A stretch of 64,000 bases of DNA from Amoebophrya sp. A120 (GCA_905178155.1 CAJINV010000004.1:5930828-5994827); one strand, 5' to 3'; positions 5,301 through 64,000 are shown, counted from the first letter of the stretch. The notes: generated by a model from the letters alone, not told the origin. Program-made: numbers and translations.

Positions 5301-8300
5301 CCGTGAGCATCGCCGCAAGCGAAAGCTTTCCGCACCACGCTGCAAAAGTGGACGGACGCAGTCGGACGTGCTTTTTTTCTTTGCTTTTCTTGGATGCAGC
5401 AGAAGCGGAGGAGCTACTTGGGGTCGCAGACGATGAAGACGCAGAAGAGCTGGCCGACGAAAAAGTAGAATTCGAATCCCTAATAGTCAGGTCCGAGCGA
5501 CCGGACGCAGACGAGGCACTGGAGAGCAAGGGATCGCCATACAGGTCTTGATGTTCGCCGACTTGTTGCATCATCGGCCCCATCGTCCTCGTCGTCGGTG
5601 TGAGCATCAATTCGGGGTCAGTATTCGCTGAGGAAGCAGCTGCTGCTGCTGCACCGAACGCGTTCGCCACGGGCGGATGCATTACCTCCGGCTTGGGACA
5701 CTTGAACTTCCTGGAAAGTGCGTGTTTCGGCTGGCCGTAAAAATCGGCTATATCGTCTTCGTTCATGATTCGGTCGAAGCATTGGTTTTGCGACCCCAGC
5801 AACCGCACGCAGAATTTTCCGCGGACCACCATTTGACACTCGCGGAAGGCGCTCGAGTCTGGGCACGCAACACGAAACACGTTCGGGTTTTTCGTATGAA
5901 ATGCAAAAGCATCATACTGGTATAAATCGCATAACAAATTCCCGCAGCATGAAAAATGGAATTTGTAATGCGGATTTAGGTTATGGTTACGAGGGAGATT
6001 TGTAATGCATCATTGCGATTACTGCGAGTACGATACTTTTGCACAGGATATTTCGGCTGGAAATGCAGCGTCCACGTGCGGCCCGTGTTGGAACGCCAGG
6101 AAAGGCTCTGATGTGGAGGGGTGTGAAGGTGAAATGAGAGTCTATCTCATAATTCCGGTGTAGTTGATAGATTTGGAGCCGTGACATAAGCTAGATACTT
6201 ACGTGTGCACTTGAGTTATCACCAGAAAAAGCAAAAATAAAGAACGCATCAAGCACAATAACATGAACTTACCTCTTCATCCTTTTTGTGCGATAGGCGG
6301 ATGGACGCACGTTGCCACGCGTGCGGCCCACCCGCCCGAGAAACGTACTCCCCCGGGACCTTTTGCGAGATCCACTCCCAGGTGGTTTTTCCAATGGCCG
6401 CGTGGGTGCCCAAAAGGTCCGCCTTGGAATACCCTAGCAACGCAGAGTACGTGAGACCGTCGCGGCGGAGCATTTTCCGCACGTGAGAGGTTGCATCGAC
6501 GCTTAAGTTCGCATTTTGCAAAGCGCTCATAGCACGCAACTCCAGAGCGGCTTGTTCATTGTTCCCGGCTCCACCGCTGACATTCGTGCTCTTCGCTCCA
6601 GTTCTTGGTGCTTCTGCGTTGAAGAACAGGTGTCGCAAAAATCCCTCCGCGTCACTCTCTGACCACAAGTGGGGGCTGGGAACGGGGTCCGAGTGTGCAA
6701 GCAGTCTTTTTCGCCAGTCGTGCGTGGTCGTGTTAGATTTCTTGTTCCTTGTAGCATTTCGGGCACCAGGGGAAACACCTCCGGACGAGGACTCTTCTGC
6801 GCCGGAAGTCGTGGTGGTGCCAACGGAAAAGCGACGCCAGAGCAAGCCGGCTCCAACGGGTCTGCGAGTGGCAGATGTGGCTGTTGCTGTGGCGTCCTGC
6901 TCCGACTCCGTCACGATACTTGCGGCACTGTCGAATCGACCACGATTCACAATGTCGTCGTCGTAAGTATCACGACCAGTGCTGCCGACCACGTTTAGGA
7001 GTTTCAAGTGCCCAAGCACCACTTGCTCAATGGTCAAGTCCGGGGGTGTGCTGCCCCTGCCGTGACTGCCGCCACAGAGATACAGGATCATCTGCGCCGT
7101 CCAGGTGTATTGTCGTTGCCTTGCGGTTATCATCTGCACGACGTCGACCCCGCTACTGCCGGCTTCGTCAGACGTGTTTGTTGCTAGTACCAACCGGCAA
7201 AAGTTCATCAAGCCTTTCCTCACCGCGTACTCCAAGGTACGCGTGTTCACCGTAGCGCCCTTTTCCAGCAACAGTTTTGCCGAATTCAACACAACTTGCT
7301 GGTTTTTACTGCGATTGGACTCATCGGTGTCGGGCTGCTTGCGGTGGCGCTTGTTGTGTCCCTTGGAGTGCGACCCAGATCTTCGCGACTGATCTCCGGT
7401 TTCGTCTTCGTCGACGTCTTGGTCGTTCTCAACATCCTCGTGTCGTCTCCTTCTACTACGCCCCGCTGCAGAGGCATCGGTCGTTGTTCGCCCACCATAA
7501 TGATCACCGTCCGCGCCCCCATTAACGTCCGACTCGTTGGCTGTTTCCTCCGGTTCGTTTTCCGAACCCGATTTTGCCCCGTCTAGCAGCGGCCGAGTCG
7601 TTGAGCGGCTAGGCTCTGCATCGTCATCGTAGTGGCGGGCGTTTGTGCGAAGAATTTGCAGGACCAGATCCGATGTATCGTAGTAGAGTTTTGAAGAAGC
7701 TGCGGCTTTTGGACCACCATCAACCTCATATATCTCTGCTCCGTTTTCAACACCTTCCCTGTGGCCTTTTGTGGCTTCTTTTTTCACAACTTTGCGATAT
7801 TTGTTCGTGTCGATGTCCAACACCGTTTCCACATATTTCCCGTTATGGAAGCGTCAGGATATAAATCGTCAAACTTGAAATGATTTCTCATGCATAAATT
7901 GCAAGACATGAAGCGCCTCCCTTGCAGGGATGGCAAGTGAGGCAGATTATGAGCCTATTTAGGGGTTGGGATAGAGCTGCTAAAGAAGCATGACAAAAGC
8001 AGTAGCAGCCTTCTGTGCCCAAACAGCATGACAAATTGGATTCCGTTGCTCCGAAAATTTGTCATGCGCCGCTTCGAAATTGGGCTTCCAACTGGTATCC
8101 ATTTTATGTATGACAAATCATTTCAACTTTGTCGATTTCAAACCTGACGCTTCCATACCCGTCCAAAAATCCGTAGTCGGTCGCGAACGCGTCCTGCGGG
8201 ACGTCACACAGCGAGGGCACGTATGAACTGCAAAAGTAACTTACTAGTATAAATAGCATCACAAATTCCCTCAGCATTATATAAATAAATTTGTAATGCT

Positions 8301-11300
8301 GATGTTTCACCTTAGGAAGAAGATTTGTCATGCATGTTTGCAATTAGTTTTAGTACGAGTACGATGCTTTTGCAGTTCATAGCACGTAGCGCAACACGAG
8401 CTGGAGTGCCTCGTGGCGAATTGAGAGCGACGTGAAGGCGTGGTTGAAGCAAAGGCGGTGCATATTACAATGAAAAATGCCCCCACCCCCGAACGTGGGA
8501 GCATTTGTATTGCAAACCTTTCCAAATGAAACATTCGCCCTCTTGCATCTATCAGCGTCACAGAGTTCCGATCGTGAAAGAATAGCAAAAATTTGTATTG
8601 CAAAAGATCCCAGCAAGAGCGGCCCTTGTCATGCAAGCGACGCGATATACACCTATACCCTGCATCAGAAAGATTCATACTCCTTTCATGCATGACAAAA
8701 AGTTTTCATATTGGAGACTTTGCATCACAAAAAATTTTTGCAACTTTGGGAGTGGGGGCATTTTTCACTGTAATAGTGCAACATCCGGAAAATCACGCAG
8801 GAAAGGTGCGGCTGCGTACCGGCGTCCGACTGCTGGCTGAGGTCTCCTGTCGTGGTGGGAGATGAACTTAGTTTCGTAGCTGCTGCTGCACTTGTTCCAC
8901 TTGTTGTGACCGCAGCAGGAGGAGGACCTCCCGCTCCGGGACTTTTTTTCTCTTCTCTATTCTTGTCGCCCTGTTTTAGTCCATCGTGAAGACTCACCTC
9001 GACGACCTCCCCGTCCTCTGACGCGACTGTCGGCGCGTTCGGTTGAAAGTTGTTTTCGTAGTAGACCTGCTCGAGCAGGTAGGGTAAGTGCTTGACCAGA
9101 AAGGAGTCCGTTTGTTGGAGGGCTTCGTCCAAGACCTCCTGGTATATGTTGGCACGGAAATCCAGCAAGAGGATGCAACAGCCGACAGCTTCCGGCAGCC
9201 GGTGTTGCATGTGTTGTAACAACGGCGTTACAATGTGTTCCGACTGTCGCGTTTTTTTTCTCGAGTTCTGGCCACTACTTCTCGTTGAAGTTGTACTACT
9301 GTCCATGTCTGTATAACACGTTGCGATGTTTGGGTCCGCCTTCAAGCCAAGCAGCACAGCCACCGCGGTCTCCCGGCCCTCTTGGATCGCGACGAGCAGC
9401 GGGGTTTCGTTCTCGGCGTTCTTCGCATTCAGCATACTGAAAAGGTCTGGCGCGGCAACTGCAGGAGTTGTCCTACTTGAAGATGCTGCGTCGTTTTTTA
9501 TCTTCAGTGCACGGGGCCCAGCCTCTTCTGGTACTGCCACTGTCTCGTCCTTTTCAACATGACCGGCCGTGGTGGAGTGGTCTATTGCTGTTTTGCCATC
9601 TTCCTCCACGTTCTTCTTGTTCGCTGCTCGCGCAGCCGCCTCTGCGATCTCTGTGTCGGTCCAGGGCAGGGTGTCGTCAGGGCCCTGGCTCCGCGCGTAC
9701 AAGTGAAACACATTGTCTTTCCGGAACGTTTCAGCCCCGAAGCGTGCACCAAACTCCAGGAGCAGACGAGCCTGATATAATAACGCGAAGAACTCTGACA
9801 GATACTACACTCAGACAGAGACAAGGTTGTTCTTGTAACGGGTTAATATGCAGGTACAAGAGAATCAGAATTATATGAATGTACTGAAGAAGAGTACGAT
9901 GTCATAGTTCCCTTCATTGACGGCAGCGAGGTAGGGCGGCATGTACAGTGGGCCGGAAAACTCGTCGTCATCTTCGGATAGCAGCGAGGAAGAGACTACT
10001 GTGATCACGTCCTCTTCTTCGACGTCTTGGTTTTCACCCTCGTGGTCCCGCCTGTCGGGAACATCCGCTTGGTCATCTTCTGGATTGCTATCTTTGTCCT
10101 CTCGACTACTCCGAGCTGCTTTTGACGTGCTCGTGGTCTGCTCCTTCACCGGAACCCACTTGAAATTCGAATCGTTATGATCGTTTTTTTTTTCCTCATC
10201 ATCCTCCGGCTCCTCGTCCGGAATGGCCGCGCCTTTGCTACCTCCACCTCGAGAGCGTCGCTTGTTTCGAGAGCGTCTATTTGATGTTTTTCGGCCCCCG
10301 GTCGAGTTTCCTCCGCCGTCTGACGAGTTGTGTTCATCACTGGAGCCCCCGCTGCTGTTCAAATCTGCTTCGAGAAGTTCCAGTTCCTTCGCCAACTCGC
10401 TGGGGATGCTGGAGACGACGTCATGGAAGGAGCCCAGTTCCTCCTCGTCCTCCTCTAAATCCTCGATGTTTGTTGACCCGTCATCGATTTCTGTGCTGTC
10501 GTAGACGGCGTCATGCCACTTCTTCCGCATCCGTTTCTCTTCCTCTACATCGTAGTTCACTTCCGCCTTTGCCTCCAGCAACAATCTCACACACGTTAAC
10601 GTCGCGTCCTGACTGCCGCCGGTGGTGACGGTGACCGCGACAGAGAGGTTGCGGTGCAAATCCGGATTCGCGTTGTTCTGCAGCAGCAGCTCCACCAACT
10701 TAACCCGCCGCTGCGCCGACTCAGTCATGTCTTTGTGTGCCACGTACGCGCGAAACGCACACTATCCTCAGGAAATTTTCCGTACGCGACAACGTAAGTA
10801 CATCTGACTACAAATGCTATTCTTGCTGCATGAGACAGGTTTTCTTCAACAATCACATTTACTAGCATGACAAGTCAAGTGCCATGATGCTTCAGGTTGT
10901 TGGAAAAATTTGTGATGCATTTTGTACGTACAAGTACTTGTGCGGTCAACGTGAATTTCAATTTGTATTTGATACGCACATCAGGGGCGTTTGCAGCTCG
11001 TCATCGACGGCGTTCGGGTTCGCGTTGTGGTCGAGCAGACACTGCGCAATTGTGTCCAGGCCCCGGCGGCACGCGACGAAAAGTGGGGTTTCGCCGTTAG
11101 AATTCAGCGGGTCGACGACAAAGCGGTTGCGGAGGTGCGCAATGTGTTCGCTATTCTGAATGACTGAGAGGGGCGGGATGGTGCGGGAAAATTCTTCCCT
11201 GATGTCCTCGCGGTTGGTGAGAAGGGGAACTGCAAACGATGATGTGCCTGCTTGTTTCGCAGCTGCAGTAGCAGTAGCTCCTTCATGTGCACTACTAGTA

Positions 11301-14300
11301 GCCGTGGCAGCTGCTCCGGCATTGCTGCATCCCGCGATGTCTTCGATTCCCGAGTGGCTGAAGCGCTTGCTGAGCCGCTTGCTCAGCTTCCGTACCGTTT
11401 CGACCTCGGATTGGGCCTGTTGGTCCTCGTCCGTTTCGGAGGTACTGGATTCGCTGGACGAAGACGAAGCTGAGGACCCCTGTTTTGATGATTTCGCGTC
11501 TTCGTACGGGTCATTTTCATCGTCTTTGAGCGCAGTAGGCTCTTCTCCGTCTCGTCCACCACCAGATTCTTCATTGTCTCCGGTTCTATTTTTACATGTG
11601 TCACCATTTACTTCCGACGTGCTGGACAGTCCGATGCCAGCGCCTGCTGTGCCCGGATCATCACTATCATCTTCTTTTCCCTCCTCCTCTTCCCCCTCGC
11701 CCTCCGTACCCCCGTCCGCGGAGCTGGCTGCCATCTCCATTACGCGATACACAATCCGCAAATTGTCCTCCCGGTTTTGCACGCAGAGCTGGAGTGCGGC
11801 CAAAATTTTGTTGCAGTAATTGATGAGGGAATTTTCCCACTCCTGCACCCGGTTCGCCGACACGGTTTCTTCCTCGTAGTACTCGAATACGGAATCCACA
11901 ATGGAGAACAGCGGGTGCTCCGGCGACCGGATCTGCGGGAACTCGTCGAAAAACGTCTCCAAGGTTTTTCGGGTCTCGTCCTTACTGGATGAAGTGTCGG
12001 CAGGAGCGTTGCCGTCGGAAGATGTTCTTCTTCTTGGGGCGTTCTTGTTTGCCGAGGCCAAAGATGATGATGACCCGGGAATCACGGCAAGGACCAGTCG
12101 GCAAATGGCGTCGAGCCGGTCCCTGTCGCTGTAGTCATCTACTTCGGGATGAAGTGGAGGTTGCTCAGGCTCTACTTCTGTTGCCGCAGCCGCATCCTTA
12201 TCATAAACACGCAGAGTCTGTTGACTACTTGTTCCTATCCGGCGGTGGAAAACCTTCGACAGAAGGTCTTCCTGCGAGGCGAAGGTTCGGACTTTGAAAA
12301 TTTTTGGACTATTAGCGGTCTTTATGTCGTGGAGGTTTTGGTTTTCAACTGCACGACCAGGAGCACTCTTCAGGAATCTTTCGAACACGGATTCGCAAAT
12401 CTCGCGCACTAGCGCGCCGCTTCCATACAGCTCCCGCATGTGGTCGAGGATGGTCAGAATTAGCGGTCTATGAAATGCAAAAGCATCGTACTAGTAGAAA
12501 TCGCATTACAGATTTTCTCAGCATGAGAAATTACTTAATAAAATTTGCAATGCTGATTTGCCTGCTTGATAAAGAAATTTGTAATGCAAGACCTGCATTT
12601 ATACGAGTACGATACTTTTGCACAGCATACGGTCGCTGGGGCTGGCCTCCTGAAGAATGATCGTAGCCCACTACTTGGAGTTCTTGTGAAGGGACTGGTT
12701 GTCGTGTCACCGCAACAACCTCTGCGGAAGAACCTCCTACGGCTGCCGGTGCAAAATTTTCGTCGCCGCGAGCAACATCTACATCGGCGATAAATGCACC
12801 GCCGCCGGCAATATTTTCGTACTTCCCACCGTAGATTTCTGCGTACATTTGCGCGCAGTGCCAGTGCGCGAGGTCCTTCTCCGCCCAACTCTCGACCGCG
12901 GCTCCCGTGTACTTTTTCAGGTTGGTGTGCTGCAGGAGTAAATCCACGACCTCTTCGCCCACGATGTTGTGGGCCAAGCACAGCGTCAGCGCGGTCTGCG
13001 GCGCTACGTCCTCTGTCGTTTCGAGATTGCAGTCCGCCTTCTGGATCAGCAAATATTTCACCACCTCGGCGTTGTCCTCCAGACTGGCGTCCTTGAGCGC
13101 GCCAAACCGCGTCGCCTTTTCTACAACCGCGGCCTGCAGCGCGGTCAGCCCGTCGGACACAAGGTTGACGTCCTCGTTGGCCTCCAGTAACAGCTGCACG
13201 CATTCCTTCGAACCGGCAAGCGCAGCGACGTGAAGGGCTCGGTAGCGGACCTCGTCCTCATCGAACTCTTCGTCGTCATCGTCGTCGAATATATCGTCGT
13301 CCTCCTCCTCCTCATCCGTGTTATTACTGGAGGTAGAAGGATCCTCCTCGCGTCCTCGCCCTCGGTCCGAGGGAAGGTGATTCCCTTTGTCATGATTTTC
13401 GTCTTGCGAGGACTCAGAACTCATCGGAGACGAAGGGTTTGAGTTCGAAGAACCTGCTTGTTCCCCGTTAGAATTTGTGCCACCGTGGTGGTTGCGCGCA
13501 CCCCGAGCCGCCTCGATGGTAGAGGCGATGTTTGAAGGCGGTGGTTCTACTTTGATCCTCAAAGGCGCCCAGATGGAACTAGCGTCGCCGCTTCGATGTT
13601 CCTGTAGTTCCTTTTCTGCACCTGCTGGTGTCCTCTTTTCATCTATTCTTGAAGTAGCCCCTGCGTCCTTACTTGCCATTGTTCCGATTCTCCCGTCCTC
13701 CGCCACCTCGACTACCGAGGACAAACCCCCCGCTACCGCTATGAATTGCAAAAGTATCGCATTGCAAATTTCTTCAGCATGAGAAATAAAATTTGTAGTG
13801 CGATTTTACCTGTAATGCATGATTGCAATACGAGTACGATACTTTTGCACAGGATAACCGCCGCGACGGAGTGGTCTTGGGGAAGGCGAAACCACAGCTC
13901 TACGGAAGACTCGGCCGACAAACGTTTCAAGTCTTCCATATGAGAGCGCACAACTCCCCGTCCCCCTCCTTTGTGTTGCATGAACAGCAACACAAACACC
14001 AGCACACGTGGAGCCTGTGCATGGCAAATTCATGCAGTTCTAGTGTAGTACTGTTTGGGCTTCCGGAATCTGTCATGCAAACAGTGCAACAGGAAAGCAC
14101 TTGGGTTTGGGGTTTTGCATGACAAATGAGGGGGAGGGGGAGTTGTGCACTGTCATATTCCACCTGCCTTAGCGGGAAGCCGACGCGCTTAAAGTGCGTT
14201 TTCCGCGTTCTTTTGGGAAGAGACGGTAGTTGAGAATTATCTGCATTTCCATATCCATTTTCATTTTCCTCCTCCTCGTCCAAACGAAACACGCGCATCA

Positions 14301-17300
14301 GCTCGGTTCTTGGCGGGAGCACCGCTTTCGTGTAGATTTTCAGATCGTGGTGGTCGCTGTTGGTGGAATGTGTGTTCTTATTTCGATTTGATCCAGCACG
14401 ACTTTGGTCTGCTCGTGCTACATCAACCCGGAAACCGGGGCGAAGTCTGTTGTCTTCAGCGGTGTTTCCGGAGCCCATTGCGGCCGCAGCGTCATAATTC
14501 TCGGTCTCTTTCACGAAGGGACAAAGCGTTCCGTCCAGCGACAGCAGGGGGTCTAGTGCTTCTTGTTGCGCGGCGCCAGTATCATCTGATGAAAGGTTGT
14601 TATTACCTGCAACTGCTGCATTTTCGTCCCGGTTTGAAGTTCCTAGTGTAGTTCCTGCAGGAGCTGTCACATCGTCGAGCACTGCGGCTCCTGCTAAGCC
14701 AGGAATCTGCAGATGCGGATGCCTTCCTGGCTCTGCCTCTGCATTAATATTTGCATCGGAAGATAAAGATGTTGAAACTGCACCAGCACCACCACCACCA
14801 GAAAGGCCTCCCCCACCGTCCAGCAGGTTTCCCGCCGTGTACACAAAAACCCCCGCATCTTCATCCGTCTCCACCTCGCAATCGGACTGGCGGATTCGAA
14901 AAGTCGCACTGGAGAGACAGGACTTCACCAACCGCGAAATTAACGCGTTTTTCCGCTTTCTTTTCCGCTCCCTCTTCGACAGAAGGTTCAGGTCCTGCTC
15001 CAACTGCAGAAACGAATCGGTCTCGGTGGAAGAGAAGAGGATTGTGACTTTGAGAATTTTTGTCTCGTGCGAGTATTCCGACGCTAGTAATTCCTTCAAG
15101 CGGTCGGGCATGGCGTGGATGCAGGTGTACAGCAAGCTACTGGTCATCCACTCCCAGCTCGTGCCGCATATGGCGTTCTCAAACGTTACATTCTCAACTG
15201 TCATGCAAAACCAACATCAACATCCACACGGCGCAGCGACTTCGCATGACAAATTCCCGAAGGGCTATCGAAACAGCATTGAAATCTGTGCGGAATTTGT
15301 AGTGCTAGAAGTTCAATCCCCCCTTTTGCCTTTTGCTATGCTTGCATTGCAAATTCATGTAACAGTTGAGAATGTAACAACTGAGAGTCCCATACCGCAG
15401 ACACAGATGATGTGGTTGCACCCCTCGGACTTGACGGTCGGCACCCCGCACTTGGGGCACCACTGCACGCCGCCGCGCTTCGTGATGCCCAGCCCGTCGC
15501 GCATGCGCTGCTCGCAGGTCTGCCCGGGGTGCCACTCCGCGGTCTTGCACTTGAAACACATAGCGGCGTTGCAGCAGGGCGTTCGGAAGTAGGGGTACCT
15601 TCGGAAAAACGCGAGCAGCAGGGTGCACTTGCGCTCCACGTCCGCGATCTCCTGGCACTTTTCGTACTATCCTTCGTAAAAACGTCCCCACACCATAGAT
15701 AGTCAAGATGGCAAGTCTGCAACACAAATCCCCCAGCTTTGGGAGTTCTGCATGACAAGTTTCGATCTGCAGTGTAGTGCTGGCTGGCAAGGAAAGCGGC
15801 ATGAAAAAGCCTTTTCTCATCCTGTTCACAGCATTACAAATGCCAAAACATGACTGGAAATGCGTCTCATGGAGATGCGCATTCCAAGTGTTCCTGTCAT
15901 TGCACATTTGTATGACAACTCTGGGGCGGGGACGTTTTTACACAGGATACGTACACGCGTTTGGCTAGGGGAGCTGCAGCCTGCAGCAGTTTCGAAGCGC
16001 CAGGACCTGGCGGGGTGGATTTTTTTCAGTAAGTACAAAAACATCAACGCAGACTGGATTTCTTTACGTACAATTTACAACTAGCGACCACACGAACAAA
16101 GAATAAAGCGCACCACACGGCAGCTGCCTCTGAAATTGAAAATGCCGACGATACATCTTTACGGCAGCTTACATACGTGCACGTGGTGCATCTTATCTTC
16201 TTGTTCAGCTTTAGTTTATACGCAAATCAACGCTTGACGGCGAGTCTTGTCCCTTCGGCGAAGTAGATCCACCGCCACCTCTCCCTCCTGCTTCCTCCTC
16301 ACTGCCCGCATCTACTTTACGTTCGCCGAAAAGCGCGTAGTTGAGATGCTGGTCGAGGTCCACGATCTGGTTTATTTCTCCAGCGAGGTCCTCCCGCTCC
16401 GTGGCGCTGTGGTCGTTGGAGGAGAAACCGCTGACCTGAGTGAACTGCGTTACGGTCCTATGGAAGAGAGGAAAAGGCTCGGTACAGTCACAAACACTAA
16501 GACTAACTTGCAGGAGGCTTTGCATGAGAATTTTTTTCGGCGTCACGACAGGAAGTTTTTCTTGTATTGCAGAAAAACATCAAGGGAAATACCGGCTTGG
16601 TCGTATCAGATTTGACTGTGTTGCATTTTCGCCGCTGACTGAACTGATGTTTGTGCTTTGCAGGGTTATTACCGATTCCACCGATGAGTGATCGTGACCA
16701 ACATTTTCTTTTTGATAGGTTCGCACCGCCACCACGCCGTCCGGCCCAGATGCGATGATCCGTGTGGTTGTCTTCTTGTTCTGCTGCAGTTCTCCTGATA
16801 GCAGGGAACTGCTGCTCGGCGGTACATCCTTACAAACCAGTTCCAGCTCGTCTGCAAGTTGCTGCAACACCTCCTCCGCTTCGCACCGCCCCTTCAGCCA
16901 CCGCTTCCAGAGCACCGAGGCGGAGTGTAGTTGAGCGCCGTTCTCTTTGGTGGGTTCCTCTTCCGCCGATGTCGTGGCAGCAATACCACCGCCGATTCCT
17001 CCCGCAGCTGCGGACGAGGCCGTGGTAGAGACACTCGCGGTGTCAGAACCGCCCCCGCATCGTCGCCAGTGTTGGTCGCGCAACTTCTCTTCGAGGTCGT
17101 GTATGGGGCTCTCAAGCGCTATATTCTCAACTGTTACATATACATAAATATACATGATTTGTCATGCAGAACTACCAGCAGAATCGAAACGATCAAGCTG
17201 CTTCGCATGACAAATTCTCGAAGTCCTAAAGAGGCTTAGAACCTGTGCCAAATCTGTCATGCAAGACGCAGAACGTCACCCCTTTCACTTTTGCCATTCT

Positions 17301-20300
17301 TGCATGACAAGTCCATGTAGCAAGTGAGAATGTAACATTTGAAAACACCATATCGTGGCGCTGTTTGTTCTTTTTCACGTGGTCGACGCCATGGTAGGGA
17401 GAGGAAAGCGAGTTCCGGAGCCAGGTATGCTGTACAAAACAAGTATCGACGTACTCGTAGTAATCCTAATCGCAGTCATGCATTACAAATCTCCATCCCA
17501 AGGTAAAACAGCATGAGAAAAAAATTTTTCCATGTGTCATGCTGAGCTAATTTTATACATCTACCGCGGGGAGATCATCCTATGGGATGATCAATGACTC
17601 GCCTGGAGTCGTCGTCGCCCCGTAGAGCGGGCGCCCACGAGATGAGCACCTGCCCGGGATGATCAATGACTCGCATGGAGTCGTCGTCGCCCCGTAGAGC
17701 GGGCGCCCACGAGATGAGCACCTGCCCCATACAGGACGAAGACATATTCAGAGTCTCTGTCACGCTACCTACGATAGCGGCGCGAGACCTCATGATCGCC
17801 CCGTGGTAAGAGAAAGAGCACGAAACCAAAAACCCACCAAAAGAGGGCGGGTGGGCGGGAAAAACTTCAAGCCCGGAGGCCTGGCCCCTGTCACTGTCAT
17901 ATCTAGGATCTGGCTACCGAGTAAGATATCGGGTCGAGGCTGGGGCCGTATAAAATATCGACCGACCAACCTCAGCCCCGACTCACAGGCTCGCGCGACT
18001 GCTGTTGCCCGGTCATAAATTTTATACATCTACCGCGGGGAGATCATCCTATGGGATGATCAATGACTCGCATGGAGTCGTCGTCGCCCCGTAGAGCGGG
18101 CGCCCACGAGATGAGCACCTGCCCCACCGACGGAGACGCAACGCGACGAAGCAACCCAAAGAACCCGCAAGTGCACACGCGTAGATGAATTTGGGTAACA
18201 ACAAGTGCCCCATCGAAGAGGAGGCGGAAGTGACGACAGCACCACGAGAGACCGATACGCCAGCAGATGCTGATCATATCAAAACGCAGACGGCAAGAAG
18301 GGCGTGACCGAGCGCAAACACAGACGGGGTCTGGCACAGACGCAAGAACAGCATGTACGGAGTCCCAGCGTGATCTCGTCGACACACATGTCGAACGAGC
18401 AGAAAAAAAAGAAATAATCGTGTACCGAGCAGGCCTACATCAACATTAAATGTTGTAAAAGAAGTAATGTGCGCCACAGCGCGAGCCATGGGAAACCCAC
18501 CCGAAAAATCTACACAGAACACAGACCCGGAACGGAGAGCGGCGCCCTTACTTCTTATCGACTCCCGCGCCGGCGCTGCTGCTGCTGCTGCCGGTCTTCC
18601 CCTGATGAACATCCCACGCCCGGGCAGGATCGAAACGCCACCCAAAGCGCTGCACAACCTCCCGAAGCTGCTCCAAGGACTCCGGGGCGGCATGGGAGTA
18701 GGAACACCCACGACGCGAGCAATTTCCATGCTGCAAGAAGATCGCGCAGGGGCCGGCCGGAGCGGAATCCGCTCCCGCCCGCTGGCGTTTCGAACGGCCG
18801 CCGTCCTCTTGTTCGGTGGTTACGGAATCCATGCGGGAAAAGCAAACACCCTGAAACCACTCCCAAACCTTTAACGCGTAGGCCTTGGGGCCCTCGTTCG
18901 GGTTGCCGCTCCCTTCATAGTCGCCCGCGGCGCTCAAAGTCTTGGCGTCCCGCGCCCAAACCTTGGCAAAGATCTCGAAGGCCTGCGCGCTCAGTCCAAA
19001 ACGGAAAACCCAGGACAGGCCGAAGGAATTGACAGCCCGCACGTCGCGCTCCGCAACAAAAAGGACAACGGTGAGCATCTGGAAAACACAGCGAACGGTC
19101 TTCAGCGGCAAGCCCGCAAGGTCCATGTCGAGAACGGCCTTGTGCAGCTTGGAGAACAAAGAAGCGGAGCAGATGATGTCAGGAGACACCCCCATCTGTG
19201 CCGCCACGGCACTAACTTTCTTCTCTTCCTTCGCCATCGTTTCGAAGCCCTTCGCGAAAAGCTTCCCCATCATCTCTAACTGCTCCGCATTCTGCAGCTG
19301 CTGCTGGGGCTGCTGCTGCTGGCCCCCATGGTTTTGCCCTTCAATATCAGACATTTTAGCGAAAAGGATGGCACCCAAAGAAGATGCGCTTTGCTCGAAG
19401 TACACGAAAATACTCACCCAAAGGTGTCAAGGTCCCTGTGACGGATGGATGGGAGGAGGAAACAGTGAGGACAAGGGCAAGAGCCGCTCCTCAACTCCCC
19501 AGGCGAAACTACTAACAGATCTGGAAGACACACCAGGACATTTCTTCCCGTGGGAGTGTCGATTTAAGAGCGAGCAACATATGATCAGAACCACAGAAGA
19601 CCCAGAGCACCCATTTTCGATTTCGACCACGGAGAAATAGAGAGGAACCCGCCCAGATGGCGCCACATTTGCAGAACATGAGTGCGGTCATATTTCGACC
19701 CAGAGATGAACGGGACACACATACACCACCGCGCTGACCCTAGTCCGCGACTCGCGTGACACAGCTCCACAGCGTAGACATATACCAACCACAAACCCCG
19801 GGGCCTACCGCCTCACGTTTCTCCTCTCTTAGGTTTAACGGATTCAAACCGCCAGTGCCACAGAGCCGAAGTCACGCCAGTCAGTCGGACCAGGATCAGC
19901 GCCAGATGGACAGACGCGCATCAAAGCGCCGTCATCACGACAGCAGACCAAACAACTCGCAGTGCGGGCAAAAGGCCTCACACACCGCGCCAGGACGTAA
20001 AGTAGACGCAGAAGGCAGCCTACTTCACAGAGAGAGAAACAACTGTAGATCGAGGGCGGAAAGGCTCCTCTCCCTACCCAAACGGCCGTCAACATCGGCC
20101 AGAAAACAACTGACTACCATCGGCAGGGGCGTTACTCCCTGGATCCCAGAATGACAAAAACGAGGGGAAAAACTTCAAGCCCGGAGGCCTGGCCCCTGTC
20201 ACTGTCATATCTAGGATCTGGCTACCGAGTAAGATATCGGGTCGAGGCTGGGGCCGTATAAAATATCGACCGACCAACCTCAGCCCCGACTCACAGGCTC

Positions 20301-23300
20301 GCGCGACTGCTGTTGCCCGGTCATACATTTATTGTAATGCAAGTACTACTAGTGCGATAGTCATGCTTTTGCAGTTCATACCAGGGGTGATCCAGCAACA
20401 AAAAGCCCGGCTGCTCGTTCAGCAGACTGCCGGTACCGTCGCAGTCCGGGCAGCGGTAGGTGAGCAACGCCTCGGCGCTCTGGTAGTACTTTTGGAACAC
20501 GGACACATCCACCAGGGGCGTCCAGACGTCCGCGGGCACGCGGGAGCGGCAGTCCGGGCACTTCAGATAGGGACACGAGTACAGCGCCGCTGACACCATG
20601 GTCTCCGCGTGCTGCGAGAAACACTCGCGGCAAAAGCAACCCTGGCACACTGGCGGCGAGGTGGAAGAGGACGACTTGCTGGTAGATCCAGTGAGCAAAC
20701 GAGCCCGCGTGTTAGACGCAGCAGCCCCAGCGCCGGATGGTTCGGTGGATAATGAAGTGCGAGGGAGGTTCAAGCAGGGCCGCAACAGCAGCCTGACGTC
20801 CACATGGCCGGGGGAGTGGCGTAACCGGCTTCATATGGATTGGAAAGAACACGTAGCGCACTCGTAGCGGTTGCATTTATTGCTGCAATAGAATTAGAAA
20901 TACGGTCAGCGTCGTGTGCGTGAGAAATACAATTAGCCAGCTGATTCAGCTTGGAAAGAAAATTTTCTTTCGCATGATTCTGATTAAGTGCTTTGTTCGA
21001 GTACGGTACTTTCGCACGGGATACTTCGTGGCGACCAGCAAATGGAGGTCTCTTCGTCGAAATCATCTAGGCAGATCTGACACCGGAAGTTGTTTAGTGT
21101 GAAAGCTTTGTCGAGGGCATCAACATCACGCCTGAGAGGGAGCAACGCCGAGGAGGGGTCGGCCAGAGCAGCCTCAGGATCGATGGGCAACAAACAGCTC
21201 TCCTGCTGCTGTTGCTGCCGGCTGAGTGCAGCATTCGCAGCTGCTCCCGCCGCAGCTTTCTTTGAGGAAGCTGCTGTTCCACCACCGGTGCCCGCCAGTC
21301 CTAAAGCTGCCGGTGTTGAACAGGCGGTCACCGAGCTTCTGGATTTTGACCCCGGTTTGCTCGCAGGGGAAACGGTGGGAAGCGATGCGCCATCATGATC
21401 CGTGGTCGTACCGCTAGCTCCGCGCTGCGCCGCGTCTAGGCGGGGGAGATGCTTGCTCGCGCTCCGGCTGATCGACGTTGCGTTTTGTGCATTGCAAAAG
21501 CATCATATTTAGTGGAAATCGCAATACAGACTTTTCCACAAGAAAATAGAATGGAAATTGTGAAGCTGCTTTTGCTTGATAGCGTTGGCGTTTCCATTTG
21601 TCGTGCACTCGTCCTGCAATACAAGTAAGCGATGCTTTTTCACACGGGATACGTCCTCGCGACCCGCGATGAGTCGCTGCAGTGCCGCATCGGTCAAGGG
21701 TTGACTGCCCTGCGCCAGCCGGGTCTGCAGGTCAGAAATCGGCGTCGCGTTGCTGGCGTAGGGGGTGGAGGAGCCTGTTGTGCCTGCTCCCGCAGAGAGT
21801 TTATTGCCCGCCGCTCCTGTAGTTGTCGTCTGCTCCCCCGCCGCGAGTTGTTGGAGATTCACCAGAGGACCTCGATTTCCCGCTCCCGGTGCGGACGAGA
21901 ACTGAGAGGTTGGCCCAGCTGTGTTTTGATGACGTTGGTCGGCCGCACGACTCCCTGTGCCGGTAGTCGCTGCCAGCTGCCCTGGAATTTGTTGACCACT
22001 TCCGCTACTGGTTCCTTGCGCCCCCACAGAAGAAGCACTTCCACCGCCTCCACCAATGCGGGGGAGGTGGTGCGCACCACCACCTCCAGCATGGTGCGGC
22101 GGCTGGTTCAGGTTTCGCTTGTTGATTTGGTTTTGCGCAGTGGCACTCCTCCGCTGTGGCTGTTGTACCAGCTGGTGGCCACCTGTTGAAGTAGGTGATG
22201 CCCCACTTGTGGTCGCATGTTGCTGGTGGTGGTGCCCAAGCGCGCCTCCCCTGCTTGCGGGTGACGAGGGTGCCGTCGTTGCAGTCCCCCTACCTCCACC
22301 AGTGGCTGTGGTCGCTGGACCTGTTCCTGTAGCATGATGATGCTGCCCTCCTGTTGCAGCGCCTCCTGTAGTGGTGTTCGCACTGGCCGCGGTTGTTTTT
22401 CGGCCGCTCAGCTCCCGGAGCTCTTTCAGACGGCTGCGTGAGCTCGGGGTCACGTATGGGTTGGTGGCGTTGTTTGTTCCGACAGCGCCTGGAACTCCTC
22501 GTGCAGTCGTGCCGACTGCGCCGCCGATAGCGGGGGTGAGCAGTTGATGTGCCCCCGCCTGCCGCGACTGTAGGTGTTGTACTAGAAATGCGGCCTCATT
22601 TGTTTTCGTCACAAGCGGTTTTGTCGTGTCGTGTTGCGTATGCTGTGAAAAAGTATCGAACTCGTACTAAAACTAATTGCAAATATGCATGACAAATCTT
22701 CCTTCTGTAGGTAAAACAGCATTAGTACAAATTTTACTTTTATTCTTGCCGAAATTTGTAATGCGATTTCTACTAGTATGGTACTTTTGCAATGCATATT
22801 GTGCACTACTGGGCTTGCTCGGCGACGACGTCGAGGCGTCGGACAAATGCTTCGCCTATCAAAATGAAAAATCTCCCCTCCCCATACCAAATTGAAAATC
22901 TGTGATGCAACAAGGCTTGTGGACATAAATCAGCTTTGTCTTGCAGTAGAGGACTGCACGCAGATACAAAGCCTGAGCTGGGCCTTTTTGGTGTTGCCAC
23001 CTAGCAAGGAAGACTGATCCTCTGCACACCATACAGCATTACAAATTGCGCGCAAAACCCGCCGGAGTCTCTGGCTTTGCCATTTTGCAAGACGATTTGT
23101 GTCCGCAAATCAGCATCACAAATTTTCAGAAGTGATGTGTCTTTTGAGTATGGGGTGAGAGGATTTTTCCTCACAATATCGCCAGGCCCGTGTTCGGAGA
23201 CTCCGCTCGGTCTTCCAGCAGGGGGCCTCCCGTGATTTGGTTGGATGTTATTTGAGACGAGGGGAAATTAATATGTTGACCTCCTGCTGTTCCACTTGTT

Positions 23301-57936: not shown

Positions 57937-58909
57937 CAAAAATTATACGTTACTACTAGGTCTTTTAGTATCTATCGATCCGTTCAGGTCTGTGTCGTCC
58001 AGGCTGCAACCTGCGAAATAGAGCTTCACATATACTTACTTTCGTGGGTCGCGATGCTGGGGCGCGGGGCGGGAGCGGAAAGTGCCCTTGATCTCTCATA
58101 GATGTCGCCGTCGGGGGCGCCAGCTTGTTGCTCTCAATTCGTCTTCAATCTGAGCACAGAATGCCGTGGAGGCTTGAACTCTTACCTGCCCAATTCTCGT
58201 CCCAGAGAAAACGACACTGTTGTGGAGCAGCCCACGCAACTTATCCCAATCAATGGAACATCGGAATCGAGAGCGACCGACAGAGGCCACAACACGAAAC
58301 AAAAGATACCGAAGGAAAAAAGTAAGCTTATGCTTTTACGCATCAGCTGCTCAATAATGGCATGATGCTAAAACTAAAACTTCTCTGTGACTCCTTCTTG
58401 AAAAAATCGTGAAAGTTGACATCTCGAATTCGAAATGACAGCCCAACTTTCATCATTTCTAGCCCCAATCTACATTCAAAATTAGCATGTAGAAAATTCG
58501 GGGTGTCCAATTTGTTTGTATAATTTGTTGCACTTCGTCTTTAATATTCGTGTCATTCTTGTGATCATTGAGAAAATCGGAAAGGAAAAACAAGGGTTTT
58601 TCATCGCAAAATATAAATATGCCGATTCAAATTTATAAACGGCAAACTCCCGAATCCGAAAACAATTAGCGGAGTGCTGAGCAAAAACTCACCGCCACCA
58701 TCCGTAGGGAGCTTGCTTTGCCACCCGGACGCGGCAATTTCGTTTCTATTTTTCGTTTCTTCGAAAGAAGTATCGATGGATATCGTATCGATGCAGCCCG
58801 CCTGAACTTAGATTTATCACGGACGGAGCTCGGTTTTTCTTACATCTAGTTTCGTGCGCTACAACACTTTTCCAGCCTGTATAATCTACTTCTCCTCCCG
58901 GCTATTTTT

Positions 58910-61900
58910 CTACTCGAAAAATTCGTCATTGAAGATCTGGTCCATTTTGTTGAGTGCCGGTGCCTCCGCGCCAGTAGTTGCACCTCCACCCGGCGCCGCC
59001 GACGGGCCGACGTCCAAGGTAAGCGCCGATAAATCGTCAATCATGTTAAAGTCGCTGGAGCTCGTTTCAGAGGACTGCTGCGCGGAATTCGGGTCAACTA
59101 CCGCTGGAGGCGCTGCAGGGACGGTCACTCCTGTGGCAAGGGGTGCAACTCCGTCGATTGTTGCCGGAGCTGCTGCTGCTGGGGGAGGTACAACTGGTTG
59201 AGGAGCTGTCTCACCTGCTGCTGTCGGTTGAACTTCTAGAGAGCTAGCCGGAAACACCGCACCATTCTGGGAGTCCGCGGTCGAACTACTGGATAGTGTG
59301 TCGGGTAGTTTCTGTGCAACCGCCGGCACCGGTGCCGGATCGTCGTCAAAGAGCCCTTTTTTCACGGCGAGGCTTGTAGCCGCGGCACTGGCGCTGCTAG
59401 AACTAGTTGCGGCGGTAGTTTCCATACTGTTTGTCGTATTTGCGATCGAAAAATCTCCGATCGGTGGAGGAACTGCCCCTACTGCAGCGGTAGCAGATGC
59501 CGGAGACGACCCCGCTGCTGGGACCCCCGACTGAGATGTTGACACGAATGCGCCCCCCGGCGCCGTGGCTGGGCTGCTCACAACTCCGCTTCCCGGCTGT
59601 CCTAATTGCGACAAATCGTAGTCCAGTTGCGTCAAATACTGCCCAAGTGACGCGATGGTCTGCCGCAAGTTCTGGCGGTGCTCGACTTCCGACTCGAGTA
59701 GCCGGCTGATCCCCTGCATCTTCGTTTCCAAAACGCCACTCCGCGCGCCCAGATCCTTGCTGGCACGCATCAAGTTGGACAGACCTAAATTTTAATTTAT
59801 TCGCGGTGGGCGACGGAGAAGGTGTGCGTGAGCCGTCGGGGTGAGGTCATAGAGTTTTTTTTTCATTTCATCTTTAGAACAAGTGCTTTGAAGGACGCCG
59901 ACCTCCTGGCACATACGCTGCATCAAATCGATTGACTACTACTTTTACCCTCGTGACGTTGCTGGATCTCCGCTTGTGCCCTGCGCAGCTGGTCCGCCAC
60001 CCCGGTTTCGCTCTGGTGTGCCTGCCGCATGAGCTCGTCCCGGAGATTCTTCTGCGAGGTGTAAAGGTGCCGCTCGGACTCAAAATCCACCTTCAGCTCT
60101 ATGAGGGTGCACAACCCCGACCCCCCATCCGCCTCATTTGTATGTTGGCATGAACAGCAATACAAACACCAGTACACGTGGAATTTTTGCATGACAAATT
60201 TCAATACCTGATGTAGTACTGTTTTGGCTTCTGAAATTTGTCATGCAAACAGTGCCACAGGGCAGCAACTGGGTTTTGGGTTTTGCATGACAAATGAGGG
60301 GTGAAGGGAGTTGTGCACTGACATAAGCTCTGCCAGCTTTCCGCCCGCGGTGGCCTTCTTGCCGTCCACTTGCAATAGAAATGCTTCGTTCTCGTTGATC
60401 TGCCGCTCCAATCTGATAAACGGTCATTTTGTTTTATTTCAACTCTTCGTCGACATATACATATTGTTTTTCTCACAACATGATCTTCAAGAAACACAAT
60501 GATGTGTACAACAACGACCAATTCGCTGACCTCGTCTACCTTGCCAGCATCAACTGCACAACTGCTCGACGCAAACAAAATAAAAATTTTCATATACAAG
60601 CTGACTTCCTCCTGCAGCTTCCTCGGATCGAAATTGCTAAGTTGCGCCAAGTGTTGATTCAGCGCTACTTCCTGCTGCTTCCAGTGGGCATGCTCCACTT
60701 TGACCTGCTGTGCGCGTCCCTGGGCCGCAACGGCTAAGCCAGCGGCAGTGAGGTAGGGGTCTAGAGGATGTGGAAAAAGTTCCAGGATCTTTATTTTTCG
60801 TACAAGTAGTACATCAGCGTGGTACACTAATTGTAATTGATACGCAGCAAGATAAACGCAGCCCCTCCGCCTTGGCAGCTGAGAAGTACTATAGCAAGAT
60901 TTCGAAAACGCTTTCGCTTGTTCATCTATACCTATGTTCAATTGATCCCCTTGCTGCACCTTCATGTGGACCATCGCGAGCGTTTTTTGCCTTTCCTGCA
61001 CCTGTTCCAGGCGTTGCCGGATCTGCGTCGCTTGATCCTGGGACCCCGCGTTTCCGAGGTTTTGCTGCTTCGCCTGCAGCATCTGTTTCTGGGTGGCGAC
61101 CAGCCGTTTTTTCTGCTCGGATTCCACGTTATGCACTGCAAAAATGTCTGGGTCTGGAAGGTTGGAACTTGTAATACTAGCTCTACATTCCTGGGAAATC
61201 TGTATTGCATAACCAACAAAAGCCGCAGCCTCTTTTGTCATGCAAAAACGCAGTTTCTCATGCGGATTGCCTATGAGAAAGCGTTTTGGGAAATTGTCAT
61301 GCTGGACTGCATTCGGAAGTGTTTTCATCATGCACATTTTAGCATCACAAGTTTCCAGACCCAGACATTTTTGCATTTGATACACGTTCAATTGCTGCAA
61401 CCCGCGTTCCAGGTCCTGGATCTGCTTCTGCTTGGCTTGCAGCGACTGGGTCAGCTCTTGCAACTTCCCATCCTTCTCGCCAAAGTCCCTCTTTTGCTCC
61501 GCAGCCTGACCATGCGTCACCTCGAGGCCCGCAAGCCGCTTGATGTACTGATCGCGCTCCGTATCACAAGGAAAAGCGTTAACATCAACGGTTTTCACAA
61601 ATTGCAGTCATGCATCACAAATGTAGCCCAATATGCATGCTATGCATTACAAATTTTGGCATGTTTATGTTTTGCGATGTATTGCTGCATCACAAATTCC
61701 GTTCACGTTAACACTTTTTGCTGGGATACTCCGCGTCGGAAAACGTGCGCAGGTTCAGTTCCCCCCGACAGTTCTCGGCGATGCGCAGCAGGTCGCCCGC
61801 GTAGTCATCGTTTTGCTTCACCGACGTTTTCAGCTCGCCCTGGATGGACAAATACCTGTCGTGTAGAGAGTAAGTAGGGAGATGACAATTCATAAACGAA

Positions 61901-64000
61901 AAGAGTACGATCTTTCTTTTATTTGATTCTCGACGTCAAACTGTATTTGGAAGTCGCACAAGAACGGCGCCACCAACGCCGGATGTTCGTGTTCCGTGTT
62001 GGCTATATAAGTACGTCATCTACCTATTCTTGTTCTCAATACGACCTCTTGAAACTAAGTATGAAACGGAAATCTTCCAAAAGAGGGATTGATTCTAGTA
62101 GGTACGCCGCCAGCGTTTTCTCAAAGGCCTGGAAATGTTCGTTGCCCACTGCGAGTTTCGGGAAGCTGGAGGAGACCTTGTCGACCTGCCAGCTGGTGTT
62201 TTGTTTCATTTTTGCGATTATGCAATGCAAAAGTATAATTGTATCGTACTAGTATGAATTGCATGACAAATCTTTCATAGAAGAAAAATGAAATTTGTCA
62301 TGCAGTTTCAGGTAAGAAAGCAGATCTGTAATGCTAGACTCGCATTAATACGAGTACGATACTTTTTTATTTGCAACGCATAGCGATGTCCACACCGGTT
62401 TTGTCCAGCGAAACCGCCAGAGGATCCAGAATCGCTTTCTCCAAGGACTTATCAAGTGCAAATATGTCTGAGTCTGGAAGAATCAAGGCTTGTCATGCTT
62501 GTCTGGCATGACCTATGATGCTTGTAATGCATGAGCCAGCATCACAGATTTTTGGAAGGCTTCCTGATGCCATTTCCGCATGACATCAAATGCCCTCCTC
62601 GCGTAGCACAAATGTGGCTCCTCTTGATGGTCATGCAATACAGATTTCTTTAGAGTCCAAAGTTAGCATCACAAGTTCCAACTTTCCAGACCCAGACATT
62701 TTTGCACTTGATACGACTTCTCGAACGCGGGCAGGCCGTCGAGGTTGCTGGAGATGTCGAACATCTGTTGCCCGCCTGCACCGTTCGCTGCTTGGTTGTT
62801 GTGCGAGTTCAAAAGGAGTTCCGCGGCCTGGAACCGGCAGGGGTGGTCCGGCACCTCCAAAATGCGGGTCAAATTCGCACTGATCTGCTGGAGGTTGCGC
62901 ATACTCAGGTTCGCTTTCTGCAGGAGCCAGAGCCCGTATTTCGCAAACCGGGGATCGATTAAGAGGGTGGAAACCTAAATTGAAAATCCGATTTGTTTGT
63001 CGACGAACAAGGTCTTTAAGGCTGTGCGTACATCAAAACATCATCGCATACAAAACGCTCACTTCAAAGATAGAGGCCGACAAGTAAGTCAACGAGGCTT
63101 CTAATTCTATTCCCAAGCAATACATACGGATACGCTAACGCTAACGGACGCAAGAACGAAGTGGAAGTTAAATAAAGCATGAAAATGCTGAGGCTCCTCG
63201 CGTCTGTCAAAAATCACTGATTGTATAAATAGTACCCTCCCAAGGCTGGTTTGGTGCGTGCAGAGCGCCGCGGTTAACTTGAGCAAATTTGGGTCGTGGA
63301 GCTGCTCGCCGCCGGTAGTAGTACTCAAACCCGTCGCTTCGGCCCACACCTCTTCCGTCTTCGCCAGCAGTTCGATCGCGCGACTAGCCTCGCAGGCCCC
63401 GGAAATAATTGCGTTGCCCGATAGGATGCAGGCCACAATCTGCGTGTTGCGGTCCGGGGAGCTGAACAGTGCGACGACGAGCCCGAGGCCGGACTCGGAG
63501 AACAGAAACTGCTTCAAGTCGTCCTCCAACGCGAACCAGAAGAGCTTGGCCAGCAGCTCATGCACCACCGCCGGTCTCTGGGGATGGAGCAATTGCAGGA
63601 TGACCTCCCGGGCCTCGATATCCTAACCAAAAACGTCCCCACCGCAGAGTTGTCATGCAGATTTCCATCTACAGAAACATTTGTAATGCGGGTACCCATC
63701 ATGAGAGGTATTTCCATTCGTGTTTTGGAATTTGTAATGCTGGAAACAGGATGAGCAGATGGATTTGTGATGCGTTTGTCCTTACTAACCTGCACTACGC
63801 TACGCACTGCAACCTGTCATGCGTGGCCCCCAAAACGTCTAGATTTGTGTTGCTAAGTGCCCAACTTGACTATGGGGCGGGCACGTTTTTACACAGGATA
63901 CTCGATTAGCGTCGCGGTCATGATCCGGGGAAATTGGTCGCTATGCATTGCAAAAGTATCGCACTAGTATAAATCGCAACACAAATTGGCTCAGCATTAC
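58910..64000 (-). CDS. Partial multi-exon protein: helical (ARM-like) region, then coiled-coil and low-complexity C-terminus
   Basis: Exons such as SGLGLVVALFSSPDRNTQIVACILSGN and QELTQSLQAKQKQIQDLERGLQQL; stop at 58910 (DEFFE*); 7 introners plus canonical introns; 5' end outside the window. Confidence 0.65.
60100..60325. mobile_element. Introner, family D
   Basis: Homologous to 13939-14157; TSD agctc. Confidence 0.92.
61130..61382. mobile_element. Introner, family G
   Basis: Family G TIRs; TSD cacgt. Confidence 0.92.
61562..61728. mobile_element. Introner, family I
   Basis: TSD ctccg; homologous to 37499-37666. Confidence 0.9.
62219..62382. mobile_element. Introner, family A
   Basis: Family A TIRs; TSD gcgat. 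Confidence 0.88.
62450..62713. mobile_element. Introner, family G
   Basis: tatcaagtgcaaa/tttgcacttgata; TSD ggact/cgact. Confidence 0.9.
63619..63900. mobile_element. Introner, family F
   Basis: 282 bp, same length as its homologue 15668-15949; TSD ctcga. Confidence 0.9.
63942..64000. mobile_element. Introner, family A (truncated by the window end)
   Basis: tatgcattgcaaaagtatcgcactagta. Confidence 0.8.

Follow-up and report, generated by a model that had tools for sequence, protein, structure and literature searches.

A TAT...ATA end rule with a 5-bp duplication, a most likely common cut register and transcript-polar terminal bases in non-canonical introns of Amoebophrya sp. A120

The genome of Amoebophrya sp. 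A120 carries introners, repeated non-canonical introns with inverted repeats of 8-20 nt that start with TAT, bordered by direct repeats, similar to miniature inverted-repeat transposable elements (MITEs), located in co-oriented genes and accompanied by no transposase (Farhat 2021, PMC7789003). The same traits are found in the stretch analyzed here, a window of 64,000 nt of A120 DNA (GCA_905178155.1, CAJINV010000004.1:5930828-5994827). The TAT start and one example of a 5-bp repeat were already published. In the passages of that paper on which we draw, however, the repeats are 3-5 nt long with varying length and position, the splice sites are variable, the borders are unknown and no rule spans the families; for more than 60% of Amoebophrya introns the paper left both borders and splicing mechanism undefined. 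In contrast, we find a uniform 5-bp repeat, one register compatible with all junctions and three bases that are protected with a polarity set by the transcript. A second survey of A120 families (Gozashti 2025, PMC12130899) agrees with our data in that most are DNA elements of 150-320 bp with terminal inverted repeats (TIRs), but differs in reporting automated target-site duplication (TSD) lengths of 2-11 and a splice model that depends on the family. A literature search yielded, for Amoebophrya, neither a 5-bp rule that is uniform across families nor the register described below, a branch point or protected bases; figures of the Farhat paper outside that search may show part of this. The sole common register, N+TAT...ATA+NNNN, and the transcript-polar protection of U+2, A+3 and A-7 appear to be new.

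The window is a eukaryotic contig in which long minus-strand reading frames are broken up by short elements that are richer in AT. A scan for TAT...ATA inverted ends, combined with a family search, manual curation and RNA joints, identified 49 whole introners at 5895-63900 and one more at 63942 that is cut by the window end (Table 1). The whole elements measure 117-333 nt, with a single exception stretched to 2955 nt. An earlier note on this DNA had described about 49 elements, in at least nine families, that share TAT...ATA ends and a 5-bp direct repeat, and this description is borne out. The ends are exact in 45 of the 49, with one-base deviations at 21486, 26169, 28741 and 38456, and the repeat has no mismatch in 30 elements, one in 10, two in 6, three in 2 and four in 1. 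When lengths of 2-10 were tried on 48 elements, an exact repeat of another length appeared in a single case, of 2 bp. Because 34 window seeds were chosen partly by their repeat, the repeat figures for the window are biased upward. A finder that applies the exact rule produced 27 hits in the window and none in each of 10 shuffles. Joint clustering at 60 bits distributed the window copies among 11 multi-copy clusters and 10 diverged singletons. The TIRs start with TAT and have an A-run about 10 nt in, except in families F2, F3 and F4, which lack this run. The elements are short, non-coding and present in many copies, with TIRs and a constant TSD, as expected for MITEs; they are introners of the A120 type, that is, non-autonomous TIR transposons of a known class.

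The earlier note had also claimed that removal of an element plus 5 nt restores the reading frame. With this removal 48 of the 49 junctions fall in minus-strand spans that run for 150-3350 codons with no stop, all three phases being represented, and one of them (15169) lies in a Cys/His pattern that we take to be an RBR RING2. At 40 of 49 junctions the frame extends further with +5 than with +4 or +6, a test that settles the removed length modulo 3 only and that supersedes an earlier one, confounded by nearby ordinary introns, in which 5 was the best value at 34 of 49. As had been stated, most elements lack conventional ends: over six repeat registers, GT/GC-AG can be achieved in just 3 of 49. 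The position of 48 of 49 elements inside long reading frames suggests either exon targeting or quicker decay outside exons. No element was found in the largely non-coding stretches 23500-24900, 40000-41400 and 52600-59000.

The end rule was checked in a second assembly, which may or may not represent the same strain. The sample, 127 loci with a total of 660 kb, was found with one 30-nt TIR; it is centered on one family and covers a small part of a genome. When ends were located by their TIRs and the repeat was ignored, 90 of 105 unique elements possessed an exact 5-bp repeat, 13 had one mismatch and 2 were poor, a count that leaves out anchors whose partner end was missing within 450 nt. For all families, again irrespective of the repeat, exact repeats numbered 340 of 453 and a single mismatch was present in 79, so that 419 of 453 had at most one. 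A scan that assumed neither termini nor repeat length (hairpins of 60-450 nt with at least 15/20 matches, 879 of 1541 of which had no repeat) returned 325 hits in the class with 5 bp and TAT...ATA and 27 in the runner-up class. Exact 6-bp repeats were absent from the window set and from the anchored set of the second assembly. Repeat mismatches in the window rarely involve position 4 (2 of 32), but this shortage was not reproduced in the second assembly (21, 21, 15, 16 and 15 by position). The proposal of one end rule for all families thus stands for the families sampled, but it does not cover the genome as a whole: file 8 of the Gozashti 2025 supplement (58 A120 rows, PMC12130899) contains a Mutator-type family with an 8-9-bp TSD and GG/CC termini. 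The same work lists A120 families of non-LTR (long terminal repeat) type that also lie outside the TAT...ATA rule.

Excision was followed in sequencing runs of which four, presumed to be RNA, contain about 0.37 of the window's words, and two others 0.88-0.89. Raw RNA runs X8-X10, labeled as the same species, have hardly any mapped reads (27-28 per run), and the contigs of run X1 give no cover over 20400-22500. Among the X1 joints listed (15 of 27), 11 are at elements and every skip equals the element plus 5 nt; the same contigs drop four ordinary GT-AG introns. The joint 32821-33091, which had been predicted beforehand, is present in X4 and X2 and absent from X5 and X7 among the joints listed. 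Contig coordinates provide three further direct skips (35935, 43773 and 44721) and three pairs of elements whose summed skips agree with +5 for each element. The comparison covered 30 of the 49 elements, with the other 19 outside it, and supported 21, contradicted none and gave no readable junction for nine. At all 21 readable junctions, 15 direct and 6 by length sum, the element plus 5 nt is missing; retention in transcripts, which would have spoken against the earlier note, was not seen there. F1, F2 and F6 elements are spliced out whichever way they lie, and GT-AG is possible at 1 of the 15 direct joints. One might object that what looks spliced reflects artefacts of assembly or DNA alleles without the element, since the runs are only presumed to be RNA and were available as contigs. 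We regard this as very improbable, for the same contigs also lose the four GT-AG introns, the joints combine bases of both repeat copies in a fixed pattern, DNA contigs pass through the elements (DNA run X5 reads into them) and the reading frames require the removal. At 22701 and 28291 about 25 raw X10 reads each match element sequence with foreign flanks, and related elements are unspliced in that library. An RNA-shown GT-AG intron of 1151 nt at 30019-31169 contains a degenerate GC-rich repeat, begins with G+TAT and, three bases short of its end, carries ATA; a decayed introner with a one-base shift is a possible origin.

A perfect direct repeat hides the position of the cut, but when the two copies are mismatched the mRNA reveals the copy from which each base was derived. 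The registers allowed by the 15 direct joints intersect at 4 only; register 5 is ruled out by four joints and registers 0-1 by seven or more. In register 4 the intron begins with the final base of the first repeat copy, continues through the element and ends with four bases of the second copy, its first four. In each copy base 4 is most likely the last before the cut, and the intersection shows that N+TAT...ATA+NNNN holds provided that one register serves all elements. In this register +2 to +4 are taken up by TAT and -7 to -5 by ATA, and with it all 49 window elements have T at +2 and a purine at +3. In the second assembly GT/GC-AG occurs at register 4 in 7 of 294 elements, and neither G at +1 (82 of 294) nor AG at -2/-1 (31 of 294) is enriched. 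A drift of old copies to GT-AG was not seen. Three of the four ordinary RNA-shown GT-AG introns of the window start with GTA.

If register 4 is the true one, selection is expected to act differently on the two ends of the transcribed element. Elements were oriented with a codon model applied to element-free flanks, which agreed with an open reading frame (ORF) criterion in 158 of 163 cases and oriented 454 of 514 elements. All six terminal bases are nearly invariant, and 35 of the 454 deviate at one of them. These deviations are distributed unequally between the transcript 5' and 3' ends, with 0 vs 11 at TIR position 1 (p=0.001), 1 vs 8 at position 2 (p=0.04) and 15 vs 0 at position 3 (p=6e-5). 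The protected bases are U+2, A+3 and A-7, while their hairpin partners A-5, U-6 and U+4 change instead (11, 8 and 15). The polarity is kept without anchored copies (0/8, 1/7 and 14/0), at other margins, with exact-repeat copies only and under ORF-based orientation (0/3, 0/4 and 3/0 in 177 elements), and the four deviant window elements agree with it. Protection of the 5' bases had been anticipated from the window data, and that of A-7 was first recognized in the second assembly. Base-pairing alone cannot explain this pattern, since pairing would guard both partners equally, and a simple strand bias in mutation is unlikely because each of A and T is protected at certain positions but not elsewhere. 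The earlier note had proposed a splicing system that ignores GT-AG. In so far as G+1 and AG are disregarded this is correct, but the system is not blind to sequence. At TIR position 14, one of 24 positions, there are 3 deviations at 5' ends and 15 at 3' ends (p 0.008 without correction), and the exact F6 end is on the 5' side 64 times vs 38, both in the 127 loci; there may be further polar constraint beyond the three terminal bases.

U+2 and A+3 correspond to the conserved core of the spliceosomal donor. On balance we lean toward a relaxed U2-type spliceosome for which the element ends, whichever way the element lies, provide a donor and a candidate branch A at the fixed position -7; a substitute splice code is likely to come from the TAT...ATA ends that the elements share. 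U+2 and A+3 would then act as a GU(A) donor minus its G, and A-7 as the candidate branch nucleophile, seven bases before a 3' cut that would be fixed by distance and not by AG, while the TIR hairpin would aid in bringing the intron ends together. Owing to the palindromic nature of TAT...ATA, both signals would be present in each orientation and insertions into exons would be nearly free. The hairpin is probably helpful yet may be dispensable, as the ends are predicted to be almost unpaired in 3 of 15 spliced introns. By analogy, a lone invariant A at a set distance from an AG-free 3' site would be the trace expected of a branch-point ruler. The introns of Entamoeba invadens have GT-AG ends. 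Their branch A is near-fixed at -8 from the 3' splice site, which is comparable, but they possess a full AYURAY branch motif, whereas the A120 elements conserve one A only (bioRxiv 10.1101/2022.06.08.495308). A further parallel is Fritillaria borealis, where the U2 spliceosome removes introns that are likewise derived from transposable elements, with TIRs, a TSD and non-canonical ends (PMC13326754, PMC11282704). Those ends prefer AG-AC/AT and U1 is conserved; in the A120 elements, on the other hand, any base is allowed at +1, -2 and -1. Nearly all spliceosomal proteins and U2, U4, U5 and U6 were found in A120, whereas the U1 small nuclear RNA (snRNA) was not, and the top nine non-canonical sites of A120 and of A25 all have T at +2 (Farhat 2021 and its Table S4, PMC7789003).

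Several considerations weigh against this interpretation. The published T+2 counts may partly mirror the aligner's choice among equivalent registers, AN acceptors being equally enriched. There is no branch-site consensus around A-7, with U two bases before it at 135 of 309 3' ends and at 155 5' ends, and only two of the four ordinary GT-AG introns have A at -7. Register 3 is ruled out by 27109 alone, an element that is itself GT-AG and could be handled differently. The RNA evidence consists of assembled contigs that follow majority paths only, from one study and two samples with presumed RNA status, and the ends at two of the 15 direct joints (26169 and 28741) were set with the RNA itself. Finally, the codon model at margin 5 was right 28 times and wrong once on its own training window.

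The alternatives differ in how they account for the hairpin and for A-7. A non-spliceosomal nuclease and ligase, guided by the hairpin as has been suggested for Euglena nonconventional introns, might cut at fixed distances from the paired ends and read U+2, A+3 and A-7. Such an activity would suit the 12 of 15 RNA-supported introns with at least 13 predicted end-to-end pairs in the first 25 nt, the indifference to G+1 and AG even in older copies, and the failure to find U1 snRNA (PMC7789003); it would also have a counterpart in the spacer-defined paired-motif code of Euglena nonconventional introns (PMC12501133). The likeness to Euglena includes non-GT-AG ends that are paired, with motifs at set distances from the cuts, but there the code takes the form of a complementary CDG/CHG pair, the cut being followed by a purine (PMC12501133), while here paired partners are not co-protected. 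We consider this activity unlikely, since the three introns mentioned above have 0-1 predicted end pairs, TAT:ATA is fully paired in just 6 of 15 models, one GT-AG element shares the register of the cut, and the protection is polar, not pair-symmetric, and concerns bases that the spliceosome uses. It is also conceivable that the spliceosome acts but that A-7 is a protein-contact or ruler base, or that registers vary, with 3 for some elements and 4-5 for others. The lack of a U2-pairing motif around A-7, the dependence of the exclusion of register 3 on one junction and the reported variability in where splice sites stand with respect to the hairpin (PMC7789003) all point in this direction. Register 4, though, fits all 15 direct joints, and no other puts the protected T at +2 and the protected A at +3, as in the GTA donors of this genome, and we judge this variant to be quite improbable.

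From the constant 5-bp duplication of arbitrary exon sequence we infer a staggered cut of the DDE type. The elements would be mobilized in trans by an integrase-type DDE transposase of the Ginger/IS3EU/IS481EU clade that binds a subterminal motif, GCAWNASA. This motif occurs 14.7 times per kb inside elements vs 0.45 outside, about a 30-fold difference, and is found in all 16 multi-copy clusters at 1.8-6 per copy; its strand counts (931 vs 1002) reveal no bias, as would be the case for a DNA-binding site. Its presence in all clusters suggests, from sequence, one DNA-binding specificity. As a branch site the motif was rejected, for it has no sense-strand excess and is missing in sense from several spliced introns. 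The integrase-like clade is marked by TA..TA and TNT..AYA termini and 4-6-bp TSDs (PMC2836005, PMC10045372), and for A120 family 38 the annotation names Ginger, TA/TA termini and a 5-bp TSD, along with integrase-like ORFs (PMC12130899). Within the clade (PMC2836005, PMC10045372), Ginger2/TDD shares the 4-5-bp TSD (5 bp in TDD-4/5) but not its TGT termini, IS3EU/GingerRoot shares TA..TA termini but not its 6-bp TSD, and IS481EU has similar termini, TNT..AYA, but a TSD of about 4, 15 or 25 bp. The combination of TAT..ATA and 5 bp has no match among the named superfamilies compared.

For the single transposase type proposed in the earlier note, which is plausible with the chances evenly balanced, no enzyme came to light. 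None of 85 ORFs of at least 300 aa in the window and the 660 kb matched a Pfam transposase or integrase (172 ORFs of 200-299 aa were outside the scan), and in the search of the same DNA for multi-kb TAT...ATA elements that encode a transposase, those read look like short elements with nested insertions and none contains one. Viral contigs searched with one TIR pattern gave no match. In addition, no transposase has been reported in A120 and general mobilization by a transposase has been argued against, in the part of that account we cite (Farhat 2021, PMC7789003). The absence of an enzyme from the ORF scan and from the published account counts against mobilization by a dedicated transposase. 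A different source of the 5-bp stagger would be LTR-retrotransposon integrases acting in trans, or several related transposases, with TAT...ATA kept mainly by survival in exons. LTR integrases produce 3-6-bp TSDs (PMC2836005, PMC10045372), the ORFs of family 38 resemble Copia/Gypsy sequences and further types of transposable element also form introns in A120 (PMC12130899); no dedicated transposase was seen, and selection for splicing acts on three of the six terminal bases. It is hard to reconcile with this view that all six bases are nearly invariant, that one subterminal motif is common to all families and that no second TIR/TSD class was encountered in 0.72 Mb, and we regard it as possible but rather doubtful.

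Taken together, the data permit a tentative synthesis, to which we give a little less than even credence: a U1-less spliceosome whose whole code is N/UA...A-NNNNNN/ (slashes mark the cuts), and one integrase-type transposase lineage whose palindromic TAT...ATA ends and 5-bp stagger supply this code both ways. If so, any insertion into an exon would instantly be a perfect intron. The TIRs of A25 begin with TTA (PMC7789003), and its TTA...TAA ends would meet the same U+2/A+3/A-7 code given a 5-bp duplication and a cut at the element's first base. Such a system would show how little sequence a spliceosome requires, and a transposon end that matches the splice code both ways would account for the gain of introns in their tens of thousands. 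The fixed register and the three protected bases make the unexplained splicing mechanism sharply testable, and the end rule offers a simple guide for re-annotating these genomes and narrows the hunt for the missing transposase.

Introners frequently contain nested foreign inserts of about 0.2-2.2 kb, with both ends and the exact repeat kept, and they seem to act as safe landing sites. A 415-codon ORF in one of these (L032) had no Pfam match and no usable Atlas match. The element nested in the 2955-nt introner of the window has the minus-strand layout A-ORF-B-A-B, with repeats of 166 and 107 nt at 99% identity and a common 5-nt core, and its own ends also read TAT...ATA. Its ORF (18551-19426) includes a CCCH-like stretch and had no Pfam match and no homologue of near length; the layout presumably recalls DIRS/Ngaro tyrosine-recombinase retroelements. 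Elsewhere in the window, tandem arrays occupy 53600-55400, one degenerate (about 100 nt) and the other near-perfect (about 75 nt), and an intergenic palindrome with 40-bp arms lies at 55533-55613, with a related second copy at 55983-56047.

Table 1. Introners and nested elements. DR, 5-bp direct repeat; frame, reading-frame test; skip, length in nt missing from RNA contigs; registers, those allowed by the joint.
Feature	Position	Strand	Evidence
Introner F1	5895..6050	-	exact DR; frame
Introner F2	7844..8157	-	exact DR; frame
Introner F1	8222..8381	-	exact DR; frame
Introner F8	8463..8775	-	exact DR; cluster of 7 members
Introner, diverged singleton	10763..10974	-	DR mismatch at transcript position 4; frame
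Introner F1	12469..12629	-	exact DR; frame
Introner F1, short (117 nt)	13740..13856	-	exact DR; frame
Introner F3	13939..14157	-	exact DR; frame
Introner F4 within RING2-like Cys/His motif	15169..15394	-	exact DR; translation across junction
Introner F5	15668..15949	-	exact DR; frame
Introner F11	16459..16717	-	1-mismatch DR; cluster of 5 members
Introner F4	17102..17352	-	exact DR; frame
Introner F1, 2955 nt through nested element	17426..20380	-	exact DR; removal gives 987-codon span
Nested split-direct-repeat element	17549..20330	-	repeat map; 292-codon ORF
Introner F1-like	20834..21023	-	1-mismatch DR
Introner F1, transcript 3' end ACA	21486..21651	-	2-mismatch DR
Introner F1 reversed	22639..22798	-	1-mismatch DR
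Introner F9	22857..23178	-	exact DR; cluster of 40 members
Introner F2	24941..25273	-	skip 338 = element+5
Introner F1	25322..25474	-	skip 158 = element+5; one raw X10 read with 25315-25474 joint
Introner F5-like	25597..25910	-	skip 319; registers 3-5
Introner F1-like	25982..26138	-	skip 162; registers 2-4
Introner singleton, transcript 5' end TAC	26169..26435	-	skip 272; registers 1-4; end set using RNA joint
Introner F1	26721..26900	-	skip 185; registers 3-4
Introner singleton, GT-AG at register 4	27109..27364	-	skip 261; registers 4-5
Introner F1-like	27829..27979	-	skip 156; registers 2-5
Introner F1 reversed	28109..28290	-	skip 187; registers 2-5
Decayed introner, transcript 3' end ATG	28741..28974	-	found via RNA joint, skip 239; registers 3-5
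Introner F1-like reversed	32505..32715	-	skip 216; registers 3-5
Introner F6 reversed	32826..33089	-	joint 32821-33091 in X4 and X2; registers 0-4
Introner F6	33992..34243	-	length sum with 34291 fits +5 each
Introner F2	34291..34603	-	length sum with 33992
Introner F1-like, GT-AG at register 4	35075..35251	-	length sum with 35336
Introner F2 reversed	35336..35648	-	length sum with 35075
Introner F10	35935..36103	-	contiguous contig pieces, skip 174
Introner F7	37499..37666	-	exact DR; single RNA edge visible
Introner F1	38000..38158	-	exact DR; frame
Introner F1	38235..38387	-	exact DR; frame
Introner F3, transcript 5' end TAC	38456..38671	-	exact DR
Introner F1 reversed	41897..42046	-	length sum with 42091
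Introner F6	42091..42346	-	length sum with 41897
Introner F6	43773..44045	-	contiguous pieces, skip 278
Introner F1 reversed	44721..44876	-	contiguous pieces, skip 161
Introner F6	46849..47115	-	1-mismatch DR; single RNA edge visible
Introner F3	60100..60325	-	exact DR
Introner F6	61130..61382	-	exact DR; frame
Introner F7 reversed	61562..61728	-	exact DR
Introner F1	62219..62382	-	exact DR
Introner F6	62450..62713	-	DR mismatch at transcript position 5
Introner F5	63619..63900	-	exact DR
F1 introner cut by window end	63942..64000	-	family search
Introners with nested inserts, second-assembly loci	L032:476-2934, L048:10115-11690, L013:3862-4492, L039:765-1461, L007:8314-8770, L045:855-1387, L012:571-1051

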